Positions 3,703-14,405 of a stretch of DNA of 32,000 nt are shown in pieces. The notes under the pieces were generated by a model, which saw only the letters and a program-made list of their open reading frames with translations, did not search any database and was not told the origin of the DNA. The translations under genes and the position numbers were made by a program. The DNA is from Candidatus Harpocratesius repetitus (GTDB lineage Archaea > Asgardarchaeota > Lokiarchaeia > Sigyniarchaeales > Promethearchaeaceae), in the NCBI GenBank assembly GCA_021498095.1, contig JAIZWK010000001.1, positions 3,090,001-3,122,000 of the forward strand, in the 5' to 3' direction. Within the stretch, counting starts at the first letter, position 1. Every line of letters starts with the position of its first letter.

Positions 3703-5190
3703 CTAAATTCGACCATCAGTCAAAAATTGCTTAGTTTTTTCGTGATTAAACCAATATTTCCCATTTAGACAAGCTAAACAGAGATCTTTTTCAGGTAAAT
3801 TAATCGCTTTAATTAAACCTTTAATGGAAAGATACTGCAAAGAATCCGCTCCAATTTCTTTTCGAATCAACTCGATTGCTTCTTCATAATTGTGTGACAA
3901 TAGAATTTTCCGCCCAAAAATAAGTTCTTGGCGGCTAGGAAAATCAACCCCATAAAAACATGGATCAGCAATTGGAGGACTTGAAGATCGGACATGAACC
4001 TTTATTGCACCTGCCTCTCGAAGAAGACGGACAATTCGAGTCATTGTGGTTCCTCTTACGATAGAATCATCGAATAAAATCACTTCCTTATCCTTTATAA
4101 TTGTAGCAACAGCATTTAACTTCATACGGACTAAATTCATTCGTTCAGCTTGACTGGGTGCAATAAAACTTCGAAAAACATATCGATTCTTCATTAATCC
4201 CTCATCATATGGAATATCAGATTCAGAAGCATATCCTAAGGCGGCAGATCTCCCAGAATCAGGCACGGGAACAACAATAGCATTTGAAAACTTGCTTTTT
4301 TCTTCACGAGCTAGAATTCTTCCTAATTGTTCACGAGTTCGATGAACTGATCTTTTGTCAATAATTGAGTCTCCACGTGCAAAATAGACATATTCAAAAA
4401 TACAATGATGAGGTTGAACAGGAATCAGAATTTCTTGATGAAAAAAGTGATCTTGATGAACATGTACTATTTCACCCGGTTCAACATCCCTGATTAAAGT
4501 ACCTCCAAGAGAAGTAATTGCACAAGATTCAGAAGCTACAATATATAATTCTGTATTCATAGATTTTACAATTCCAATGCAAAGCGGCTTATTTCCACTT
4601 CTATAAATGTAAATATCACCCTCATTAGTTAAAAGAATTAATGAAAATGCACCATCTAATAAACGAGTTGTAAATGTCAGATTCTCAACCCAATTTTCAG
4701 TAACCAAATGATTTGAAGCGAGTAAATTAGCGATAACCTCAGTATCACCATTAGTTAGGAAAATTCGTCCTTTTGATTTAAGTTGTTCTTTCAAAATTGG
4801 ATAATTAGTGATATTTCCGTTAAATGCAATAGAAAAGGGAGGAGCTTGTGTCGTCTCATAATGGAAAGGTTGAGCATTGAGAATATCCCCACTACCAGCA
4901 GTTCCATATCGTACATGTCCAATACCAACATTTCCCCAGAGTTTTGATAATACTTCTTGAGTTAAAGCTTCAAAGACTAAACCTTCCTGCTTATACGTGT
5001 GAATGGTTTTATTGGCATCAACAATGCTTATCCCAGCAGCTTCTTGCCCCCGATGCTGAAGAGCCATTAAACCTTGAAAGATTGTTTGCGATACATGAAC
5101 GGATGGATCTTTTGCTACAACTCCAATAATTCCACATTCTTCATGGGGAACATCATCACTAGCTCTTTTTAATAAAAATTCACTTTTCAT
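3703..5190 (-). CDS. purF: Amidophosphoribosyltransferase, [4Fe-4S] and propeptide (Bacillus-like) type
   Basis: 18-aa propeptide then EE-C-G nucleophile, QHRGQEAAG, GHVRY, NAQP, FNGNITN, PRPP-binding VILFDDSIVRGTT, and cluster Cys in CIFEY, PCFYG and CLAC. Confidence 0.97.
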   Translation of the reverse strand: MKSEFLLKRASDDVPHEECGIIGVVAKDPSVHVSQTIFQGLMALQHRGQEAAGISIVDANKTIHTYKQEGLVFEALTQEVLSKLWGNVGIGHVRYGTAGSGDILNAQPFHYETTQAPPFSIAFNGNITNYPILKEQLKSKGRIFLTNGDTEVIANLLASNHLVTENWVENLTFTTRLLDGAFSLILLTNEGDIYIYRSGNKPLCIGIVKSMNTELYIVASESCAITSLGGTLIRDVEPGEIVHVHQDHFFHQEILIPVQPHHCIFEYVYFARGDSIIDKRSVHRTREQLGRILAREEKSKFSNAIVVPVPDSGRSAALGYASESDIPYDEGLMKNRYVFRSFIAPSQAERMNLVRMKLNAVATIIKDKEVILFDDSIVRGTTMTRIVRLLREAGAIKVHVRSSSPPIADPCFYGVDFPSRQELIFGRKILLSHNYEEAIELIRKEIGADSLQYLSIKGLIKAINLPEKDLCLACLNGKYWFNHEKTKQFLTDGRI

Positions 5191-5214
5191 TTTGATTACC
5201 TACTTATTTATCAG

Positions 5215-5982
5215 TTATAAATGATTTTGTGCATATTTCACAGCATTTTGAAAAATCTTCAATCCATTTTCTTCTGGTGCATTTCCACGAGTCCATTGAG
5301 GATGATTAAACTTAGTTAAATGACACTCTGGATGAGGCATCATTCCAAAAACTTGTCCTGTTTCATCACAAATTCCAGCGATTCCATCCGTAGATCCATT
5401 TGGATTATTAGGATATTCATTTGGATCATAGACAAAAGGAATCATACCTTTTTCCCATAATTGATCGATAATTGATTTGGATTTTGCCACAAAGCGTCCC
5501 TCTCCATGTCGAACAGGAATTTCTAATATTGGAGCATAATCTCTGGTCCATATACATCGAGACTTTAAGGTCTTAAGTTTAACCCAACGATCTTCAAAGA
5601 ATCCCGATTTATTTCCAATGAGTGAGACTGTCTGTTTGAATAATTCGCCTTGAAATCCAGGTAAGATTCCCATTTTCACCAAAACTTGAAATCCATTACA
5701 AACTCCAAAAATTAATTTACCATCTTCTATAAATTGGTTAAGGTCTTTGCGTAGAGTATATTTAAATTTGTTAGCTAAAACAGTTCCTGCACCTAAATAA
5801 TCTCCAAAACTAAATCCTCCAGGAAACATCAATATTTGATAATTTTCTAATGAATCGCGTTTGTGAATAAAATCATTAACATGAACCCTTTGAACAATAT
5901 CTGCACCAGCCAATTCAAAGGCATATTGAGATTCATAATCTGAATTTATACCAAATCCTATCATTATACATACATTTACCAT
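5215..5982 (-). CDS. purQ: FGAM synthase glutaminase subunit
   Basis: PGGFSFGDYL, GVCNGFQ (catalytic Cys), HGEGRF, MMPHPE (His/Glu). Likely start ATG 5982, 1 nt after the purL stop, with GGAGGGG upstream. Confidence 0.95.
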   Translation of the reverse strand: MVNVCIMIGFGINSDYESQYAFELAGADIVQRVHVNDFIHKRDSLENYQILMFPGGFSFGDYLGAGTVLANKFKYTLRKDLNQFIEDGKLIFGVCNGFQVLVKMGILPGFQGELFKQTVSLIGNKSGFFEDRWVKLKTLKSRCIWTRDYAPILEIPVRHGEGRFVAKSKSIIDQLWEKGMIPFVYDPNEYPNNPNGSTDGIAGICDETGQVFGMMPHPECHLTKFNHPQWTRGNAPEENGLKIFQNAVKYAQNHL

Positions 5983-5983
5983 T

Positions 5984-8932
5984 TTATTCCCCTCCTTCAA
6001 CAAGAACAGATAAAGTGGATTGCCAAGCTTTTTTCAGTTCTTCAATGGGTTCATTGAGAATAATCTTCTCATCTTTTGAATTCGAATATACTATGAATTT
6101 GCGCCCAATTACTTTACCTATGCAAGCAGTGATAGTATCTTTCATAATATTTTCAAATTTTTCTAGATCTTTTGGGTTAATTGTTACAATTATACGACTA
6201 GGTGATTCTGAAAATAGAAGGACATCATCACGTAAAATTCCTTCAGTTGGAACAGCATTCAAATGAATTTCTATCCCATAATCACCAGCAAATGCAGATT
6301 CAGCCAATGCAACACCTAATCCTCCATCAGAACAATCATGGGAAGAACAAATTATTCCTTCATTTATTGCTGTGAAAAGTTTTCGATATCGTATAATTGC
6401 AGCAGAAGGATTCACTCTCGGTATTGAATTAAACCCTGATAATTTTAGCTCATCTATATATTCAGATGCTCCCAATTCCTGTTTTGTTATTCCAAGAATA
6501 TAAATCAAATCACCTTCATGTTTAACATCTAAAGAAATACTTTTACGAATATCAGGAATTTTTCCAATTACAGAGAATAATAAAGTAGGAGGAACACTTA
6601 CTTTTGTATCTTCAATTCTATAATCATTTTTCATTGAATCTTTACCTGAAATGCAAGGAACTTTAAATGAAGTTGTAATATCATATAACGCTTTATTTGC
6701 TCGTACCAACATTCCAGTGTATTTTTCTTCATCTTCTTGGGAAAATCCCATTGCCCAGCAGAAATTATCAAGTCCTGCTAAATAATTTGGATTGGCACCT
6801 ACGCATACTGCATTACGAACAGCTTCATCAATCGCATTTGCAACCATCCAATATGTATCAATATCAGAATATCGGGGACAAATCCCATGTGAAATGACCA
6901 ATCCTTCCCAAGAATTAAGAATAGGACGTATTACGGCAGCATCACTAGGCCCATCATTGTGTTTTCCCATAAAAGGCTTTATAATACTACCTCCTTGAAC
7001 TTCATGATCATATCGACGAACAATAGCTTCTTCTTTTGAACAGATATTCAAACGTCCTAACATTCGTTTTAGCATTGATGCCATAGATTTAGGCGCGGGA
7101 AATTCCGGATCTAATCCTTTTAGAGAATTCCACTTTCCAATCATTTTCTTTTGAGGGGTTCCTTCATGTAAAAAATCCATCGAGATATTTCCAACAATTT
7201 CGTTTTGATAATATAATTGGAAATGTTTAGAATTATTAAATTCGCCTACAATCGTGGATTCTACCTCAAATTTTTCAGATAATTCCATAAATTGCTCAAT
7301 TTTTTCTGGTGGGACTGCTACAGTCATGCGTTCTTGCGCTTCGCTTACTAAAATTTCCCAAGGCATAAGTCCAGGATATTTCAACGGAGGTTTTTCTAAA
7401 TCCAACCTTGCCCCAATTTCTTGCCCCATCTCTCCAACACTTGAAGATAAACCGCCTGCACCATTATCTGTTATTGCATTAAATAAATCTAAGTCTCGAG
7501 CTTTTAGAAGAAAATCCAGCATATTTTTTTGAACGATTGGAGCACCAATTTGAACAGCAGTTGCAGGAGAATTCTCGTTGATTTCCAAAGACGAGAAAGT
7601 AGCACCATGAATTCCATCAGCCCCAATTTTTCCTCCGCACATCACAACAAAGTCCCCCGGTTTCGGACTTTTTTCATGAGTAAACTTATCGTTAATTTTT
7701 GCAGGAGCAATCCCTCCAGTTCCAACGAAGACTAATGGTTTTCCTAAATATCTGGAATCAAAATAAAGACTTCCATTTACTGTTGGAATTCCTGATTGAT
7801 TTCCACCATCAATAACTCCTTTATGAACACCTTTGAGAACACGCCGGGGATGGAAAAGACGAGGGGGAATTTTACCGTTATAAAATGGACTGGCAAAACA
7901 AAACACATCGGTATTAAATATTAATTTAAATCCTTTACCTGTCCCTGCAGGATCTCGATTACATCCCACAATGCCAGTTAACGCGCCTCCATATGGATCT
8001 AGTGCAGTTGGTGAATTATGTGTCTCCACCTTCATTGCAACTGTAAAATCATCATTAAATTTAATAACACCAGCATTATCTTTGAAGACAGAAACTAAAT
8101 AAGGAGAATTAATTTGCTCTGTTGCTGCTCTAATATATGTTTTAAATAACGAATCAATAGTTTCTTTTTTTTCTCCTTCTTCATAATATTCGATTTTTGC
8201 ATTAAAGATTTTATGTTTACAGTGTTCTGACCATGTTTGTGCTAAACATTCTAATTCAACATCAGTCGGATTAGGAGGTAATCCCAATTTCAACCTTTCT
8301 TCTTTTTCTTGATGAAAATGATCCCGTATCGCTTTCATTTCTTCTAAATTTAGAGCTAAAACATTTTCTTGACTAATTTGGAGTAATTCCTCATCCGAAA
8401 CATCTAAATTGATTTCTTTTACCTCAGGTTTCTGATTCAATATTACTTTTGGAACTGTAGGGTTGAATTCGTCAATCATTTTACCGGATTTAATTTCCCA
8501 GCGTTGAATTAAATTATTAGCAAGTAAGTTCTTTGCAATATTTTCTGCAGTGGCAGTATCACAATTGTGAAGGAGAAATTGCTCGGACGTATATACCCCA
8601 TCAACATCAACATTGATGGCATCACTTATGGCTTGAACTGCAGTCATACCAACATTATCTGTTACCCCTGGTTTAAAACCAATTTCTAATATTGTTCCAT
8701 CAAAGTTCCTGGCTAATGGGGAATCTATTGCAAACTGTTCTGTAATTGGATCTGAGAAAACTTCTTTTCCTAATTTTGAAAGTTGATCAAAGGTTAAATT
8801 TCCACCTTCAATGGTGTATACTTTAATTTTTTCTACTTTAGAAACGGTTGTAATGTCGAGATCATGCTTGATGGCAGCATGAACGTTGGAATCTACTGAA
8901 ATCCCAACCTCGATACGGTGTACATTTTCCAT
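5984..8932 (-). CDS. purL: FGAM synthase synthetase subunit with two N-terminal PurS-like domains fused
   Basis: QTWSEHCKHK, KVETHNSP, DGIHGA, DNGAGG, SEAQERM, SGKDSM, HDCSDGG. The first ~147 aa contain the PurS-like GFKPGVTDNVG...LLANNLIQRWEI. No glutaminase domain. Confidence 0.96.
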   Translation of the reverse strand: MENVHRIEVGISVDSNVHAAIKHDLDITTVSKVEKIKVYTIEGGNLTFDQLSKLGKEVFSDPITEQFAIDSPLARNFDGTILEIGFKPGVTDNVGMTAVQAISDAINVDVDGVYTSEQFLLHNCDTATAENIAKNLLANNLIQRWEIKSGKMIDEFNPTVPKVILNQKPEVKEINLDVSDEELLQISQENVLALNLEEMKAIRDHFHQEKEERLKLGLPPNPTDVELECLAQTWSEHCKHKIFNAKIEYYEEGEKKETIDSLFKTYIRAATEQINSPYLVSVFKDNAGVIKFNDDFTVAMKVETHNSPTALDPYGGALTGIVGCNRDPAGTGKGFKLIFNTDVFCFASPFYNGKIPPRLFHPRRVLKGVHKGVIDGGNQSGIPTVNGSLYFDSRYLGKPLVFVGTGGIAPAKINDKFTHEKSPKPGDFVVMCGGKIGADGIHGATFSSLEINENSPATAVQIGAPIVQKNMLDFLLKARDLDLFNAITDNGAGGLSSSVGEMGQEIGARLDLEKPPLKYPGLMPWEILVSEAQERMTVAVPPEKIEQFMELSEKFEVESTIVGEFNNSKHFQLYYQNEIVGNISMDFLHEGTPQKKMIGKWNSLKGLDPEFPAPKSMASMLKRMLGRLNICSKEEAIVRRYDHEVQGGSIIKPFMGKHNDGPSDAAVIRPILNSWEGLVISHGICPRYSDIDTYWMVANAIDEAVRNAVCVGANPNYLAGLDNFCWAMGFSQEDEEKYTGMLVRANKALYDITTSFKVPCISGKDSMKNDYRIEDTKVSVPPTLLFSVIGKIPDIRKSISLDVKHEGDLIYILGITKQELGASEYIDELKLSGFNSIPRVNPSAAIIRYRKLFTAINEGIICSSHDCSDGGLGVALAESAFAGDYGIEIHLNAVPTEGILRDDVLLFSESPSRIIVTINPKDLEKFENIMKDTITACIGKVIGRKFIVYSNSKDEKIILNEPIEELKKAWQSTLSVLVEGGE
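5989..5995 (-). promoter_or_regulatory. Shine-Dalgarno-like site for purQ, within the purL 3' end
   Basis: GGAGGGG 6 nt before ATG 5982. Confidence 0.55.
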
Positions 8933-9156: not shown

Positions 9157-10113
9157 CTATATCTTAAGATTCTTTTTTATGCGTTCAATTACATTTCCTT
9201 CAACTACAGGAACAAAATCTTGCCCAGTAATCATTTCAAATGATTGAACGTATCGATTTACGAATTCAACTTTAATATCATCTGGTATCTCCGGAATAGG
9301 TCCATCTCCCATAAAATTTTTCTCTTTTATCAACCATTGTCGGAAAAATTCTTTATCTAAAATCTCTGGTTTTTCTCCTTTCTCAAATCGTTCTTGATAA
9401 CTATCTTTAATCCAAAATCGTGAAGCATCAGGGGTAAAAATCTCATCAATAACAACAATTTCACCATCATGAGTTTTTCCAAATTCAAATTTACAATCTA
9501 CTAAGATGAGATTATTTTGTGCACAATAATCGGATGCAAATTTAAACAAATCCATTGTTTTCTTTTCAATATCAGTATATACATCTTCTTCAACTAAACC
9601 TTTAGCAATAATTTCTTCTCTTGAAATAGGCAAATCATGTTCTCCTACCTCAGCTTTAGTTGTTGGAGTAATTACTGGTTCAGGAAGTTTTTGGTAATTC
9701 TTTAAGCCAGCAGGAAAAGTAATTCCAGAAACAGATTCTCCTTTTTGATATGCGCGCCATGCACTTCCAGTAATGTAAGCCCGAACAATCATTTCAACTG
9801 GTAAACTCTGACATTCATGCACGCGTACGACATTTGGATCTGGAATATCGATTATATGGTTTGGAGCAATATGTTTAGTTTTTTCAAACCAAAATGTAGA
9901 CATTTGATTTAACAGTTGACCTTTAAATGGAATTGTTGTAATAACTTTGTCAAAAGCACTGAGACGATCTGTAGAAATAATAATTCGTTGATGATTTTCT
10001 TCATCAATAAAATTCTCACGTACTTTTCCTCGATAGTGTTTCCCTAATTGAGGTAATTTTATCTCATGCACTGTATTGTGCAGTTGATCTCGTATAAGCG
10101 ATTCATCTAGCAT
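9157..10113 (-). CDS. purC: SAICAR synthetase (long ~320-aa type)
   Basis: GKVRE, STDRLSAFD, KGQLLN, EMIVRAYITGS, ITPTTK, LVDCKFEFG, DEIFTPDASRFW. Confidence 0.95.
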   Translation of the reverse strand: MLDESLIRDQLHNTVHEIKLPQLGKHYRGKVRENFIDEENHQRIIISTDRLSAFDKVITTIPFKGQLLNQMSTFWFEKTKHIAPNHIIDIPDPNVVRVHECQSLPVEMIVRAYITGSAWRAYQKGESVSGITFPAGLKNYQKLPEPVITPTTKAEVGEHDLPISREEIIAKGLVEEDVYTDIEKKTMDLFKFASDYCAQNNLILVDCKFEFGKTHDGEIVVIDEIFTPDASRFWIKDSYQERFEKGEKPEILDKEFFRQWLIKEKNFMGDGPIPEIPDDIKVEFVNRYVQSFEMITGQDFVPVVEGNVIERIKKNLKI

Positions 10114-10234: not shown

Positions 10235-10594
10235 CTATTGCTTTGAATAATTGTCTCCACTGAATTGTTCAATAGGATATTTTTTGCTATTTTTTTCAAT
10301 TTTACGAAGAACTATTTCAGTAAAATTAGGAAGTTTTAAACTATTAACCAAATTCAATAAATATATAAAAACATCAGCAATTTCGTCAGTTATAGGTGTT
10401 AAATCTCCGTGAAAATAGTCATCTGGCTTAAAAAGGAAGTTTTCTAGCAATTCTCCCGCTTCAATTGATATTGCTTCAGAAAGCGCTCGTGGAGTGTGAT
10501 ATTTTTCCCAATCTCGATCAGCAACAAATTGCTTGAGAATTGTTCTAAATTGTTGAATTGTGAAATTTTCATCATTTGGGCTTTCAGCTGACAT
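10235..10594 (-). CDS. MazG-like nucleotide pyrophosphohydrolase (DCTPP1/RS21-C6-like)
   Basis: DRDWEKYHTP, EAGELLE and DEIADVFIYL, KIEKNSKKYP. Start ATG 10594 with GGTGA upstream, overlapping the methyltransferase stop. Confidence 0.85.
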   Translation of the reverse strand: MSAESPNDENFTIQQFRTILKQFVADRDWEKYHTPRALSEAISIEAGELLENFLFKPDDYFHGDLTPITDEIADVFIYLLNLVNSLKLPNFTEIVLRKIEKNSKKYPIEQFSGDNYSKQ

Positions 10595-12026
10595 TATTTT
10601 CACCCTTTTGTGAATATTTTTTACAAAATTTAAGAATCTTTTGGATATCTTTTTGTTCTAGATTTTTACGAAAATCTTCCTTTTCTTGAGGTTTCATCAA
10701 AAGCAAAGGACAGGTTTCAATTATTTTTCGAGCTTGGGAAAGTCCGAAATATTTCCGGATATAATCACCTGAAGAATACTTATAAGAAGTAAGGAACTCG
10801 CTATCAGATTCAGTACGTAAGTATTCAAGAATAATATTAACATATTGTTGCAAAAGGCGCTGATCAGAAATAGTTAATGGTGAATCAAAGAAAATTTGAA
10901 TAGGATTAGTTCTGTATGTGTTTTTTGTTACTAAAATTCCAGATATTCCAAAACTAGCATATATTTCATATAATCCGGCTCTTCCTTCCCATTTTCCTGT
11001 ATCAACAGTTCTAACCCATAGAATATTTTTGTGGATTTTTTCTGCTAATTCTGAATTGACATATATTTTTTGTCGTTGATACTTATTTTTGAAGTATTTA
11101 TTTGCATCAATTACAGAAATAACTTTATCACCAGGATTATCTAAAACTTCTTGAACTTTTAAATAATAATGTAGTTTTATTGGTGTTCTACATTGGTAGT
11201 TTTGAGTAAATTCTTCAAATGTTGTTCCAGCTCTATAATGATAACTCGGATGCAGTATAAATTTTTTAGAAATCTTCTTATTGTTAATTTTTATTGCAGA
11301 AAATTCAACTACTTCTTTCTTTTTTTGGATTTTTCTGATAAAGAAAAAGATACCAACATTCATCCCTGTAAATTCAAAAATCGGCTTTTCAAATATGAAT
11401 GCTTGTTGAATTTTATAGTGTGGCAAAAAATTATCCCTGAATTGATTTGAAACCGAATTTCCGAATAAAAAATTAGTTGGAATAATATAAATCATGCGAG
11501 AAATAGCTTGACGGAGATCATTCATTAATGCAATTTGATAAAGATCTTGATATCCTTCATTTACACCTGCAAAATATTGTAAATGACTTTGTGTTTCACG
11601 ATGTTTTGAAATATACCCCAAATATAGATAGGGAGGATTAGTAATATGAAAAATAGGGTATGTTTTGGGTAGATTTTTCAGTAAATCAGGGAATGATTTC
11701 AAAGAATCCCATAGTATGATATTTTTTTCAGCTATAGATTTAGGAATTCCATATAGTTTTGCATTAGAAATTGCTTCTTCAATGCTTTTCTCTTGAATAT
11801 CAAATAAAAATATATAATTTTTGAAAAAATTAATCCGTTTTGATTCAGGAATGTGTTCTAAAATAGGAAGGATTAAATTACCAGACCCAGCGTATAAATC
11901 TACCCAAATATAATTATATAACTCAGATTGAATGGAAGGTAGGATAAATTCTCGAAAAATTCCAGAAGATGTATAATGCTGCCCGAATTTTCTTCGGTGT
12001 TTGGATTGAGATTCCATAGTTTTCAT
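10584..12026 (-). CDS. SAM-dependent amino-methyltransferase, probably N6-adenine DNA methyltransferase (gamma motif order), with no endonuclease domain
   Basis: FGQHYT (motif X), DLYAGSG (motif I), ITNPPY (motif IV), YIIPTNFL, and a C-terminal putative target-recognition region. Confidence 0.8.
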   Translation of the reverse strand: MKTMESQSKHRRKFGQHYTSSGIFREFILPSIQSELYNYIWVDLYAGSGNLILPILEHIPESKRINFFKNYIFLFDIQEKSIEEAISNAKLYGIPKSIAEKNIILWDSLKSFPDLLKNLPKTYPIFHITNPPYLYLGYISKHRETQSHLQYFAGVNEGYQDLYQIALMNDLRQAISRMIYIIPTNFLFGNSVSNQFRDNFLPHYKIQQAFIFEKPIFEFTGMNVGIFFFIRKIQKKKEVVEFSAIKINNKKISKKFILHPSYHYRAGTTFEEFTQNYQCRTPIKLHYYLKVQEVLDNPGDKVISVIDANKYFKNKYQRQKIYVNSELAEKIHKNILWVRTVDTGKWEGRAGLYEIYASFGISGILVTKNTYRTNPIQIFFDSPLTISDQRLLQQYVNIILEYLRTESDSEFLTSYKYSSGDYIRKYFGLSQARKIIETCPLLLMKPQEKEDFRKNLEQKDIQKILKFCKKYSQKGENNVS

Positions 12027-12046: not shown

Positions 12047-12820
12047 TTAAAAATTAAAGATTCGGCTGAAAAGATCTTCCTTTTTTGGCATAATCATGGA
12101 TTGTGGGTCGATTCGCTCATTAGTAAAATTCACAGGTACATTATTTACTAAAATGAAAGGGGTTTGCTCATCACACTCACCCATTAAAATATGCGCTAAA
12201 TCTGTAATTTGATCGGCTATAGCACGAGTTGTCCATTCCATTTTATGCCCATAAAGATCGCATCGACCACGACAATCAATAATCGGTTTAAATCCAGCGA
12301 CTCCGATTGCTACACCTACGATTCCTCTTCGTAGTGGTTGAACTCTCGAATCAGATATAATGACACCGAAATCTTTCAGTTCATATTTACTTTTAATTTC
12401 TTGACATAATTCAGCAGCAACATTAAAAGGATTAGAAGGCCATAAAGAATATTGATCTTCGTCTCCTGCATTTGATTTATCAATACCTGCATTTGCAATA
12501 AGAATACCGGATTTAAGTGTAAAAAGCATACCGGGAATACCCCCAATAATTTCATCTGCTTCTTGAATAACCAACTCTGCAAATTTGGGATCAAGATTAT
12601 ATCCCTGACTTAGCTCTTCAGCCTCTAAAGAATAATTTTTCACATCAGATAACCGAATTATTCGATTTTGACAAGTTCCTACAACAGTTTCTGCAATTAC
12701 AAGTATAGATTTTTCTTTAGGAAATTGAGTATTTGCTTCAAAAGTATCACATAATACAGTAAATAAATCTTCGCCTTGTTTAATGATGTGTGTGGTTTTA
12801 AGTCCGATTGCTGTTAACAT
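12047..12820 (-). CDS. cofE: CofE-family (F420-0:gamma-glutamyl ligase-like) protein; substrate uncertain
   Basis: ANAGIDKSNA, VIISDS, GVAIGVAG, DCRGRCDLYG, TRAIADQI, MGECDEQTP. Start ATG 12820 preferred to TTG 12826. Confidence 0.82.
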   Translation of the reverse strand: MLTAIGLKTTHIIKQGEDLFTVLCDTFEANTQFPKEKSILVIAETVVGTCQNRIIRLSDVKNYSLEAEELSQGYNLDPKFAELVIQEADEIIGGIPGMLFTLKSGILIANAGIDKSNAGDEDQYSLWPSNPFNVAAELCQEIKSKYELKDFGVIISDSRVQPLRRGIVGVAIGVAGFKPIIDCRGRCDLYGHKMEWTTRAIADQITDLAHILMGECDEQTPFILVNNVPVNFTNERIDPQSMIMPKKEDLFSRIFNF

Positions 12821-12850
12821 TTTCAATTCTCTGTAATATTTTTTAAATGA

Positions 12851-14173
12851 TTAAATTATTTTTTCATCTGTCGTGATTTTATTTTTTATAATCTTAAAAA
12901 TCTTTGAAAAATTAGTTTTAGGGTTTTCTGCTTGCTGAATGAGTCTTTCAATCATCATTCCTATCTGATTTAATTCCAAATCTTGATTTTTTAATTTATT
13001 GATTAATTTCTGGAACTCCAACTGTGTTCCCATTAATACAGCAGTGAATTTTTTTTCATATTTTTGATTCTCTGTAGTGATTACATCTTTATGAATTGCC
13101 ACTTCTCCATTTCGAGCCAGCATTTCTTGTTTTAATATCAAAGCTTGCGGTGCAGTTAAATTTTCAATTTGAATTAGGCGATGAATCATTTTCTGCCTCA
13201 TAATTGCTGCTCCACCTTTAGATACACCAGATCTACGAAGAAAGATTTCTGCTGCTTCTTTTGTATGAAAATTTGGGAGTAATACTGCTTTCTGATCTTT
13301 TATTTGCGTTTGAATAACATTCTTTCGAATTGCTGATGCCATCTGAACTGTCTCGCGCAATTTTTTAGTAATTTGATGAGCACGAATTATATGAGCACCA
13401 TTAAAAACAGCAACTGAAGTAGCAGCAAGGCTCCCATCTAATCTTTCTATTGGATTTTTTTTCTCCAAAACTGAACCAATGAAAGATTTTCTAGATAAGC
13501 CAACTAAAATTGGAGCTTGAAGTGCTCGAAAATCTTCCAAAGAATGAAGCATTTCTAAATCATATTCAAATGTCTTTTCTGCTATCCATTTTCCTACTCC
13601 TGGATCGACAATTACTTGAGAAAGATCATAATTATCGCTAGATAATGATTCAATTGTTGAAAATAGAGCATGCAAAATTTCACTTATACTTTTTGCATCT
13701 CCTGGTTTCTGTTGAGTTGCCATCAAACAAACAGGAAGATTGTGAGAAACAACCATATCTTTTATTTTTGGATCGGTGTGAAATGAAGAAATATCATTAA
13801 TCAAAAGAGGAATATCATATGGGGTAGCCAATTTGATAGCTAATTCAACAATTTCAGAATACTGAGTATCAATTGAAAGAACTACGCTCTTTGGAATGTG
13901 TGGAAGGGCGATTTTTAATGCTTGTTCCACTCGAGCATACTCTTCACTAATTGTAATGGGATCTGACCATGGAGCAGTTGATCTTGCGCCAAAATCAAGA
14001 AAAGTCGCACCATTTGCCAAATCTTCCATAATTTGAGGCAATATTGCATCTTTTGGAATATAGGATTCTTTATAGAAACTTTCAGGGCTAAGATTTATTA
14101 TTCCCATTAAATGAACTGGATACAAATCACCAATATAAACTCTATTTGATAAATATGATTGTATTATTCCCAT
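12851..14173 (-). CDS. folP: Dihydropteroate synthase family protein (archaeal type) with a ~155-aa C-terminal extra domain
   Basis: MGIINLSPESF, LDFGARSTAP, SIDT, LINDIS, VDPGVG, VGLSRKSFIG, GAHIIRAH. Confidence 0.85.
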   Translation of the reverse strand: MGIIQSYLSNRVYIGDLYPVHLMGIINLSPESFYKESYIPKDAILPQIMEDLANGATFLDFGARSTAPWSDPITISEEYARVEQALKIALPHIPKSVVLSIDTQYSEIVELAIKLATPYDIPLLINDISSFHTDPKIKDMVVSHNLPVCLMATQQKPGDAKSISEILHALFSTIESLSSDNYDLSQVIVDPGVGKWIAEKTFEYDLEMLHSLEDFRALQAPILVGLSRKSFIGSVLEKKNPIERLDGSLAATSVAVFNGAHIIRAHQITKKLRETVQMASAIRKNVIQTQIKDQKAVLLPNFHTKEAAEIFLRRSGVSKGGAAIMRQKMIHRLIQIENLTAPQALILKQEMLARNGEVAIHKDVITTENQKYEKKFTAVLMGTQLEFQKLINKLKNQDLELNQIGMMIERLIQQAENPKTNFSKIFKIIKNKITTDEKII

Positions 14174-14405
14174 ATGTTATAATAATATAACACATTATTT
14201 TTGGATTTAGTTTAATGATAAATATTAAAGATACGATGATCTTGAAGAATTTTTCATTTTTCTTGCTTATACTTTGATAGAGAAGATTTTAAAGAACATA
14301 ACTCTTTTTAGTTGCCAAACCTTTCTTTTATTTACAGAAGCAAAAACTGTTTCTAGTTTTGACACCAAACATTGCTTTTTGTCGAATCAATAGGTGAAAC
14401 TTTCC

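Follow-up and report, generated by a model that had tools for sequence, protein, structure and literature searches.

Gene Organization of the folP-Ligase Locus

The window analyzed in this study is a stretch of 32,000 nucleotides (G000:C1:3090001-3122000) from the genome of Candidatus Harpocratesius repetitus, hereafter G000, a closed, single-contig genome of 4.36 Mb with a G+C content of ~30% and a completeness of 93.6% (CheckM-type). Protein matches place the window among the Lokiarchaeia-type Asgard archaea. A gene for a FolP-type dihydropteroate synthase (DHPS), termed P0001, and a gene for a CofE-family ligase, termed P0002, are arranged head to tail on the minus strand with FolP first, as read directly from the open reading frames (ORFs; Table 1). 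All public records of the P0002-type protein carry the name coenzyme F420-0:L-glutamate ligase. The comparisons described below suggest that this label is probably wrong, and that P0002 is likely to be a dihydrofolate/folylpolyglutamate synthase that replaces FolC and works like FolC2 of Chlamydia.

The folP gene ends with a TAA stop codon (12851-12853), and the gap to the ligase gene is 24 nt when counted to a TTG codon and 30 nt when counted to an ATG codon at position 12820. The ORF from the TTG encodes 259 amino acids; the form in the public record has 257 amino acids and begins at the ATG, two codons inside the TTG ORF, which is likely the start of P0002. A preliminary description, made from the letters of the window alone, had reported that folP and a cofE homolog are co-directional and lie about 30 nt apart, and that neither further cof genes nor folC occur in the window. 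Both observations were borne out, the latter well beyond the window, as FolC, CofD, and CofH (above the cut-off) were not found anywhere else in the genome either. The closest named relatives of P0002 are proteins of Promethearchaeum syntrophicum (63% identity) and, next, Lokiarchaeum ossiferum (59%).

Table 1. Features of the folP-ligase locus and its flanks (window coordinates).
Feature	Coordinates	Strand	Remarks
P0001, FolP-type dihydropteroate synthase, whole gene	12851-14173	-	440 amino acids
P0001, catalytic TIM-barrel domain (~residues 23-282)	13328-14107	-	Pfam Pterin_bind, TIGR01496
P0001, extra C-terminal domain (residues 286-440)	12854-13318	-	No Pfam match
Spacer of 30 nt, folP stop to ligase ATG	12821-12850	-	AT-rich; sequence read
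P0002, CofE-family gamma-glutamyl ligase paralogue	12047-12826	-	PF01996; predicted dihydrofolate/folylpolyglutamate synthase
Divergent folP/gyrB intergenic region	14174-14393	.	AT-rich; presumed promoter of the folP-ligase unit
N6 DNA-methylase-like gene	10584-12026	-	480 amino acids
MazG-like pyrophosphohydrolase gene	10235-10603	-	
purC	9157-10113	-	

Family Assignment and Active-Site Residues of P0002

P0002 scored 198.9 bits against PF01996 in a full-length match (positions 4-218 of the 218 in the profile) and was aligned by phmmer to the Af-CofE structures over residues 13-232 (E = 3e-31). Its scores fell below the cut-offs of both CofE equivalog models, with 163.8 bits against 180.65 for TIGR01916 and 178.6 bits against 274 for NF009809, and also below that of the FolC2 model TIGR04132 (131.1 bits against 350). 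Canonical CofE proteins of Asgard archaea and Methanobacteriaceae reached 294-322 bits on TIGR01916, compared with 164-217 bits for the P0002 class. On TIGR04132, the Asgard P0002-type clade scored 121-151 bits and the bacterial FolC2-like proteins examined, for which it was the best model, 185-240 bits.

The preliminary description had pointed to two motifs in which the ligase departs from F420 CofE. Both differences are real and hold throughout the clade: canonical CofE has A-Q-K-I-V-S-K where P0002 has A-E-T-V-V-G-T, and D-S/T-x-G-R-P/A-W/F/L-R where P0002 has D-S-R-V-Q-P-L-R. In the crystal structures of Af-CofE, the F420 chromophore is held by an extended segment, G153-C155, with F92 stacking from behind and R234, contributed by the partner subunit, from above (PMC10861534). 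The phmmer alignment matches these residues to V162-Q163-P164, G99, and M246 of P0002, respectively, the equivalence of R234 and M246 being exact only to within one residue. As shown in Table 2, the substitutions at the chromophore segment and at column 246 extend over the clade of P0002, and further columns conserved in canonical CofE are also altered; the column matching F92 is variable in both clades. The bacterial FolC2-like proteins likewise lack G162, R163, and R246. A core comprising N112, A113, G114, D116, S118, N119, D159, R166, G168, D190, D205, and E220 is kept in both clades and is presumed to bind metal, nucleotide, and glutamate. This residue pattern is the one expected for the same chemistry carried out on a different cofactor head group.

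Table 2. Alignment columns (P0002 numbering) that differ between canonical CofE and the pterin-side clade; percentages were taken from the tree alignment.
Column	Canonical clade	Pterin-side clade
162	G 99%	V/T
163	R 100%	Q 69%
164	P/A (49%/48%)	P 98%
165	W/L/F	L
246	R 88%	M/I/V
95	R/K 96%	G 90%
50	S 97%	Variable
51	K/R 97%	Variable
78-79	K-D	Variable
134	D 96%	Variable

Phylogeny of the CofE Superfamily

A tree of 49 proteins was calculated with IQ-TREE (LG+C20 PMSF; support given as ultrafast bootstrap/SH-aLRT); as no outgroup exists, it carries no information on the direction of evolution. The proteins CT611, AF2256, and MJ0768 were represented by stand-ins, namely the bacterial proteins that score best on TIGR04132 and a CofD-adjacent CofE protein of Methanobacteriaceae. 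The tree was dominated by one branch with a length of ~1.4 and a support of 100/99, which separated 20 canonical-type archaeal and bacterial proteins, including a Methanobacteriaceae CofE and bacterial CofE/FbiB, from 29 others. The latter side comprised the Asgard proteins with a pterin context (P0002 among them), their relatives from DPANN archaea, and three bacterial FolC2-like proteins, two from Saccharibacteria (L148 and L152) and one from a Pseudomonadales metagenome-assembled genome (MAG; L173). The same split was recovered in a quick tree of 110 rows with an SH-aLRT of 100, in which 49 of the 67 rows of the canonical clade had an F420 context, 17 had none, and one had an incidental MtrH nearby. 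Clustering with F420 CofE, a finding that the preliminary description had named as telling against its proposal, was not seen, the ligase being separated from the CofD/CofC-linked clade. As a side observation, the Saccharibacteria MAG of L152 carries two FolC2-like genes (3887-4681 and 5186-6031) on opposite strands, ~500 bp apart.

By these sequence comparisons, P0002 belongs to the CofE superfamily (PF01996/COG1478) but stands outside CofE proper, because four defining features of the latter were tested and found to be missing: a score above the cut-off, the chromophore-contacting residues, linkage to cof genes, and a position in the canonical clade. Judged by the curated model, P0002 is also placed outside the FolC2 family.

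Gene Contexts of the Two Paralogue Classes

To place P0002 among its relatives, we surveyed an even sample of 201 Asgard genomes, whose families are coded f1-f27 (f1 being the family of G000 and f2 its sister family). The counts from this sample are descriptive and carry no statistical test, since the genomes are related and some are incomplete. PF01996 proteins were detected in 188 of the 201 genomes, mostly in two or three copies, and were assigned to paralogue classes by gene context together with the tree. A single score threshold for splitting the classes was dropped, as the folP-linked copies of f5 (147-160 bits to P0002) overlap with the best canonical proteins (~150 bits).

The two classes lie in different gene neighborhoods. 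Genes for DHPS, MptE, NAD-kinase-like, or glycine cleavage (Gcv) proteins were located within 1.5 kb at 25 of the 30 loci closest to P0002, compared with none of the 29 best-scoring canonical loci; the adjacency of the ligase to pterin genes is far beyond chance. The canonical loci were flanked instead by CofD (11 of 29), a MobA/CofC-like transferase (6), or a RimK-type, CofF-like ATP-grasp protein (8). In f2, the canonical paralogue is an FbiB-like fusion of CofE with a nitroreductase domain, followed by cofD (L038:1447-2877, L040:808-2217, and L124:3977-5392), in agreement with the bifunctional FbiB homologue published for Lokiarchaeota (PMC8498797). No cof genes were observed as neighbors of the folP-linked ligase among the loci read. 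The same division was apparent in 80 named GTDB loci: proteins nearer to the canonical type, from Alphaproteobacteria, Chloroflexota, Bathyarchaeia, and a Methanobacteriaceae archaeon, were encoded beside CofD, FbiB-C, CofC, or RimK, and the Asgard proteins nearer to P0002, including those of Hodarchaeota, beside DHPS.

Linkage of the ligase to folP, on which the preliminary description had relied, is conserved in many Asgard families and occurs in three arrangements, with FolP before the ligase, the ligase before FolP, or the two genes divergent. The DHPS gene is followed by the ligase gene, either overlapping or 0-30 nt apart, in P. syntrophicum, L. ossiferum, and a Baldrarchaeota MAG, in the last of which GcvT and GcvH are adjacent as well. 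In Odinarchaeia-type genomes, the ligase gene overlaps mptE, with genes for DHPS, a short-chain dehydrogenase/reductase (SDR), a tautomerase, GcvT, and GcvH within 5 kb. When gene coordinates were compared by hand, FolP and the ligase were found within 2 kb of each other in ~74 genomes (f1, f2, f4, f5, f12, f14, f15, f19, and f22), within ~5 kb in six further genomes (f3, f21, and one of f12), and apart in ~39 genomes, mostly of f7. A conserved operon is found in f7, consisting of genes for methylenetetrahydrofolate reductase (MTHFR), MtrH, MtrA, MtrH, DUF2114 (methanogenesis marker 14), the ligase, and a LarC-like nickel-insertion protein (L076:3134-10265; also L074, L078, L091, and L107). 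All of the recurrent contexts of P0002-type genes belong to pterin-dependent one-carbon (C1) metabolism.

Several side observations were made at these loci. In the Odin-type folate clusters (L013:2420-3676 and L011:836-2031), DHPS is followed by the SDR gene and then the tautomerase gene, and the SDR is a candidate FolM-like substitute for the missing FolA-type dihydrofolate reductase (DHFR). An NAD-kinase-family gene adjoins mptE, a CofE-like ligase gene, or gcvH in Odin-type, Baldr-type, and f21 genomes (L013:4848-7586 and L010:1874-3010), and lies divergently beside mptE in G000 (L095:7495-9526 = G000:C1:4353495-4355526). A tblastn search detected only one NAD-kinase-family gene in G000, and it may therefore be the housekeeping NAD kinase. 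Members of f7 have a third PF01996 copy in the canonical clade (272 bits on TIGR01916; L075:7875-8684 and L077:7971-8825), with CofD in only 6 of 43 genomes, and most f7 genomes gave no match to CofD or to beta-ribofuranosylaminobenzene 5'-phosphate (RFAP) synthase.

Folate, F420, and Methanopterin Genes in G000

P0002 is the only PF01996 protein encoded in G000. In the whole 4.36-Mb genome, no match was found for FolC, CofD, bacterial hydroxymethyldihydropterin pyrophosphokinase (HPPK), or Mch, and no CofH scored above the cut-off, the single match being a weak radical-SAM protein of 34 bits. Given the absence of CofD and CofH, F420-0 cannot be made in G000. Several users of folate are encoded, namely serine hydroxymethyltransferase (SHMT), formate-tetrahydrofolate ligase (FTHFS), GcvT/GcvH, and a MetH-like protein of 820 amino acids that combines homocysteine methyltransferase, pterin-binding, and B12 domains. 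G000 also has an HPPK of the archaeal, MptE-like kind. FolC-type enzymes are used by halobacteria and eukaryotes, and the FolC search included a control. Judging from this gene content, a folate glutamylation step is needed in G000, and P0002 is the only candidate for it.

G000 also encodes RFAP synthase (241.6 bits), which catalyzes the committed step towards methanopterin, within a methanopterin-type cluster (C1:3462263-3473644; L094) that comprises genes for FolE, an MptH-type DHPS-like protein, a PF02441 flavoprotein, DUF1464, DUF447, a C45-family protein, MptD, RFAP synthase, and an AIR-synthase-like protein. The MptH-type DHPS-like protein has 609 amino acids, with DUF6513, a weak Pterin_bind match, and PterinBD-DUF4346, and the flavoprotein belongs to the family of the archaeal dihydromethanopterin reductase DmrX. 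As this methanopterin-type branch has its own DHPS homologue, the FolP-ligase pair constitutes a separate module. The cluster stands in a genome in which neither Mch nor F420 genes were found.

Distribution of the Ligase among Asgard Archaea

The search for FolC gave no match in all 201 Asgard genomes of the sample, so that a canonical folC elsewhere, another finding that the preliminary description had named as telling against its proposal, is seen neither in G000 nor in the sample. FolP (TIGR01496) was found in 166 of the 201 genomes, and every family with FolP has the P0002-type paralogue. FolP was not found in f6, f9, f11, f13, f16, f17, f20, and f23; of these families, f9 and f16 carry canonical CofE only, and f11, f17, f20, and f23 gave at most weak matches. 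CofD was missing from many ligase-bearing genomes, being found in none of three genomes of f1 plus G000, none of three of f21, none of f26, and 6 of 43 of f7. RFAP synthase and MptH-type DHPS share a distribution (f1, f2, f4, f8, f9, f10, f12, f13, f18, f19, and f27), often lying a few kb apart, and the FolP-ligase pair occurs without this methanopterin module in f3, f5, f14, f15, f21, f22, and most of f7. The joint absence of FolP and the paralogue was particularly clear in three f2 genomes, G065, G156, and G177 (100, 92, and 100% complete), which lack both and keep CofD, RFAP synthase, and MptH-type DHPS; their best matches to P0002 had E values of 1e-34 to 9e-39, compared with 1e-51 or lower in their family-mates. 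Four f12 genomes exhibited the same joint absence. The distribution of P0002-type proteins follows FolP, and not the methanopterin module or CofD.

The DHPS Partner P0001

P0001 matched Pterin_bind of Pfam at residues 23-266 (E = 6e-40) and narrowly passed the cut-off of TIGR01496 (167.1 against 162.6 bits). It is 30-35% identical to bacterial DHPS proteins of solved structure and retains the pterin-site motifs SIDT, NDI, DPG, SRKS, and RxH. In the p-aminobenzoate (pABA) pocket, PESF is retained, loop 2 reads STAPW in place of STRPG, and DPGxGF has its GF exchanged for other residues and gains an insertion of three. Because these pocket loops have diverged, pABA is only a putative arylamine substrate of P0001.

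The 155 C-terminal residues of P0001 (286-440) gave no Pfam match. Homologous domains are found only in the Lokiarchaeia-type and Baldr-type DHPS proteins of 409-447 amino acids, and are missing from the DHPS proteins of the other Asgard families, which have 279-300 amino acids. An AlphaFold2 model of the domain was confident, with a pLDDT of 82. A Foldseek search with this model returned nothing at E <= 1e-3, and an Atlas feature search gave sub-threshold leads only (0.84). In VIA-align, the best match was the flavin-dependent thymidylate synthase ThyX (2af6; Z 9.1, with a root-mean-square deviation of 2.0 A over 92 residues), followed by 5chp and 4fzb (Z 8.0), and five of the six top matches were of the ThyX family. 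The nearest structural likeness of the modeled domain is to part of the ThyX fold, which we regard as a lead only.

Proposed Function of P0002 and Alternatives

In the function that we propose, as the most economical reading of the data, the pocket of P0002 would have been re-tooled from the F420 deazaflavin to pteroate or folate. By homology, a nucleotide triphosphate and two divalent metals would convert the carboxylate of the substrate into an acyl phosphate, which would then be attacked by L-glutamate. P0002 would put the first glutamate on 7,8-dihydropteroate, the product of the FolP encoded upstream, and would probably also extend tetrahydrofolate with more gamma-glutamates. Separate from the methanopterin-type module of the same genome, the two genes would form one "late folate module" and provide SHMT, FTHFS, the glycine cleavage system, and MetH with their glutamylated folate. 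What the comparisons show directly is the gene pair, the division into two paralogues, their gene contexts and distribution, and the residue changes; which substrate and nucleotide P0002 uses, and how many glutamates it adds, is inferred from these.

The support for this proposal is comparative throughout, and a number of results weigh against it. The scores of P0002 on the CofE models (164-179 bits) exceed that on the FolC2 model (131 bits), and every cut-off was missed. The join of the FolC2-like bacterial proteins to the Asgard clades had a support of 61/54 in the 49-protein tree, and a constrained tree with the FolC2-like proteins on the canonical side had a higher likelihood (p = 0.865 in the approximately unbiased (AU) test). 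The ligase paralogue is not beside FolP in f7, f8, f26, and f27, and f6 and f13 carry a divergent copy without a TIGR01496-type FolP, that of f13 being GcvT-adjacent. No FolA-type DHFR (PF00186) was matched in G000, which leaves a gap in the folate pathway. The arylamine loops of P0001 are unlike those of pABA-using bacterial DHPS, making the product of FolP uncertain, and the methanopterin-type pathway of G000 offers a second pterin cofactor as a possible substrate. The quick tree had placed the FolC2-like proteins within a Lokiarchaeia/DPANN subclade beside P0002 (95*); this nesting was not used in view of the AU test and the 61/54 join.

It is rather unlikely that the ligase glutamylates a methanopterin-type cofactor in a sarcinapterin-like manner, acting on a carboxylate of the phospho-hydroxyacid side chain, a group similar to the phospholactyl end of F420-0. 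In its chemistry, the hydroxyglutaryl-phosphate terminus of methanopterin comes near the natural substrate of CofE, G000 itself has the methanopterin-type cluster, and in f13, where the methanopterin module is present without TIGR01496-type FolP, a divergent copy lies beside GcvT. However, the paralogue is folP-linked in families in which RFAP synthase and MptH-type DHPS were not found (f3, f5 with 0 of 21, f14, f15, f21, and f22 with 0 of 10). Conversely, G065, G156, and G177 keep the methanopterin module yet lack the paralogue along with FolP, and f9 has this module with canonical CofE only. The ligase gene never adjoins that of RFAP synthase in the loci read, and MptN, the known sarcinapterin ligase, is an ATP-grasp enzyme. 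The preliminary description had named dihydropteroate, folate, or a methanopterin-like pterin as the substrate; the folate branch of that suggestion gains from the co-distribution with FolP, and the methanopterin branch is disfavored.

The varied contexts of the ligase, which include MptE with NAD-kinase-like genes, GcvT/H, and the MTHFR-MtrH-MtrA-DUF2114-LarC-like operon, together with the copies in f8, f26, and f27 that have no pterin neighbor at all, would also be compatible with the attachment of glutamate or another amino acid to an undescribed C1-linked carboxylate. This reading too appears improbable, as each recurrent context involves a pterin C1 carrier, and the only step that fits a glutamate ligase and lacks a candidate is folate glutamylation.

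Even less likely is a reversed order of steps, in which the ligase would act before FolP by adding glutamate to pABA, and the diverged FolP would produce dihydrofolate in one step by condensing pABA-glutamate and the pterin pyrophosphate. Such an order could account for the STAPW loop and for the replaced Phe of DPGxGF with its three-residue insertion in P0001, and the tight coupling of the two genes fits either order equally well. However, substrates of such small size are not known from the CofE family, FolC2 as the precedent works downstream of FolP, and P0001 retains SRKS, a motif that contacts the carboxylate of pABA in bacterial DHPS.

An ordinary F420-0:glutamate ligase using F420 precursors from partner organisms, as might be suggested by the CofE equivalogs being the top database models of P0002, by the uniform naming of the public records, and by the life of Asgard relatives in syntrophic consortia with F420 producers, is highly improbable, since P0002 scores under both CofE cut-offs and falls outside the canonical clade at 100/99, the residues matching G153/R154 and probably R234 are replaced, G000 has no detectable CofD or CofH for F420-0 synthesis, and F420-making genomes carry a separate canonical CofE besides.

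Comparison with Known Systems and Significance

The proposed replacement of FolC has a bacterial precedent in CT611 (FolC2) of Chlamydia trachomatis, a COG1478 protein encoded in the fol cluster that complements an E. coli folC mutant (PMC1971073, PMC4161248). Like P0002, FolC2 (TIGR04132, "intra_fol_E_lig") belongs to the CofE family and has its gene in a folate cluster, in a genome that lacks both FolC and an F420 pathway. The bacterial FolC2-like proteins of L148, L152, and L173 have, like P0002, lost the G-R and C-terminal R residues of canonical CofE and lie outside the canonical clade. In contrast, P0002 reaches 131 bits on TIGR04132 (cut-off 350), and the Asgard proteins form clades of their own. 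The partners also differ: in the Asgard system, an archaeal MptE takes the place of FolK, the DHPS is extended by a further C-terminal domain, and a methanopterin-type pathway coexists. The "FolC2-type" route put forward in the preliminary description therefore stands as a predicted function but not as family membership, given the model score and the weakly supported tree join.

P0002 has in common with F420 CofE (Af-CofE) the PF01996 fold family and the core for metal, nucleotide, and glutamate. It differs in the deazaflavin contacts, in the replacement of the clade-conserved S50, K51, K78-D79, D134, and R95, and in a gene that is unlinked to cofC, cofD, and cofF and occurs in genomes where CofD was not found. 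With FolC it would share the reaction and the place in the pathway directly after FolP, although FolC is an ATP-dependent enzyme of the Mur-ligase fold and non-homologous to P0002. MptN (MJ0620), the tetrahydromethanopterin:alpha-L-glutamate ligase, likewise adds glutamate to an archaeal pterin C1 carrier; as an ATP-grasp enzyme acting on methanopterin, it bears only on the methanopterin alternative.

A literature search on FolC2, COG1478, and CofE in archaea and on Asgard folate synthesis found this clade undescribed and FolC2 reported from Chlamydia only, with comparative genomics of archaeal pterin pathways incompletely covered. Folates without a glutamate tail work poorly or leave the cell, and the P0002-type proteins are a concrete candidate for the missing Asgard enzyme; if the assignment is correct, a pathway hole is filled in the archaea closest to eukaryotes. 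It would also correct a systematic annotation error, as the F420-ligase label inflates reports of F420 genes in lineages without the rest of the pathway, and reviews have tallied Asgard "F420 biosynthesis genes" with the two paralogues unsplit (PMC8498797). Eukaryotic folylpolyglutamate synthase, which is FolC-type, would then have a source other than the archaeal ancestor. Furthermore, a canonical CofE and a folP-linked paralogue in the same genomes provide a natural matched pair for the cofactor switch of a gamma-glutamyl ligase.

A broader and, in our view, doubtful scenario is that the folP-linked paralogue represents the ancestral archaeal means of glutamylating pterin C1 carriers, older than the employment of the enzyme for F420, and that it serves both folate and methanopterin-type cofactors in archaea with both modules, such as G000. 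The bacterial FolC2 proteins of Chlamydiae and the candidate phyla radiation would be its descendants, the ThyX-like domain fused to the Asgard FolP would belong to a channeled FolP-ligase machine, and eukaryotes would have swapped in a bacterial FolC. Were this so, the lineage nearest to eukaryotes would have glutamylated folate with a non-FolC enzyme.

Neighboring Genes

Upstream of folP lie gyrB and gyrA in the divergent orientation, and the gyrB/gyrA-folP arrangement is common to Promethearchaeum and Lokiarchaeum. The intergenic region between folP and gyrB, presumably the promoter region of the folP-ligase unit, contains TATA-like stretches 40-60 nt 5' of the folP ATG. On the 3' side of the pair, the window contains the DNA-methylase-like gene, the MazG-like gene, purC, purL, purQ, and purF. 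The methylase-like gene begins 20 nt past the ligase stop codon. It was ruled out as a third member of the operon, as it is not at that position in Promethearchaeum and Lokiarchaeum, where other genes are found, and it is probably an insertion. The MazG-like gene followed by purC is the downstream order in P. syntrophicum (L008) as well, and the MazG-type enzyme could serve as a dihydroneopterin-triphosphate pyrophosphatase.

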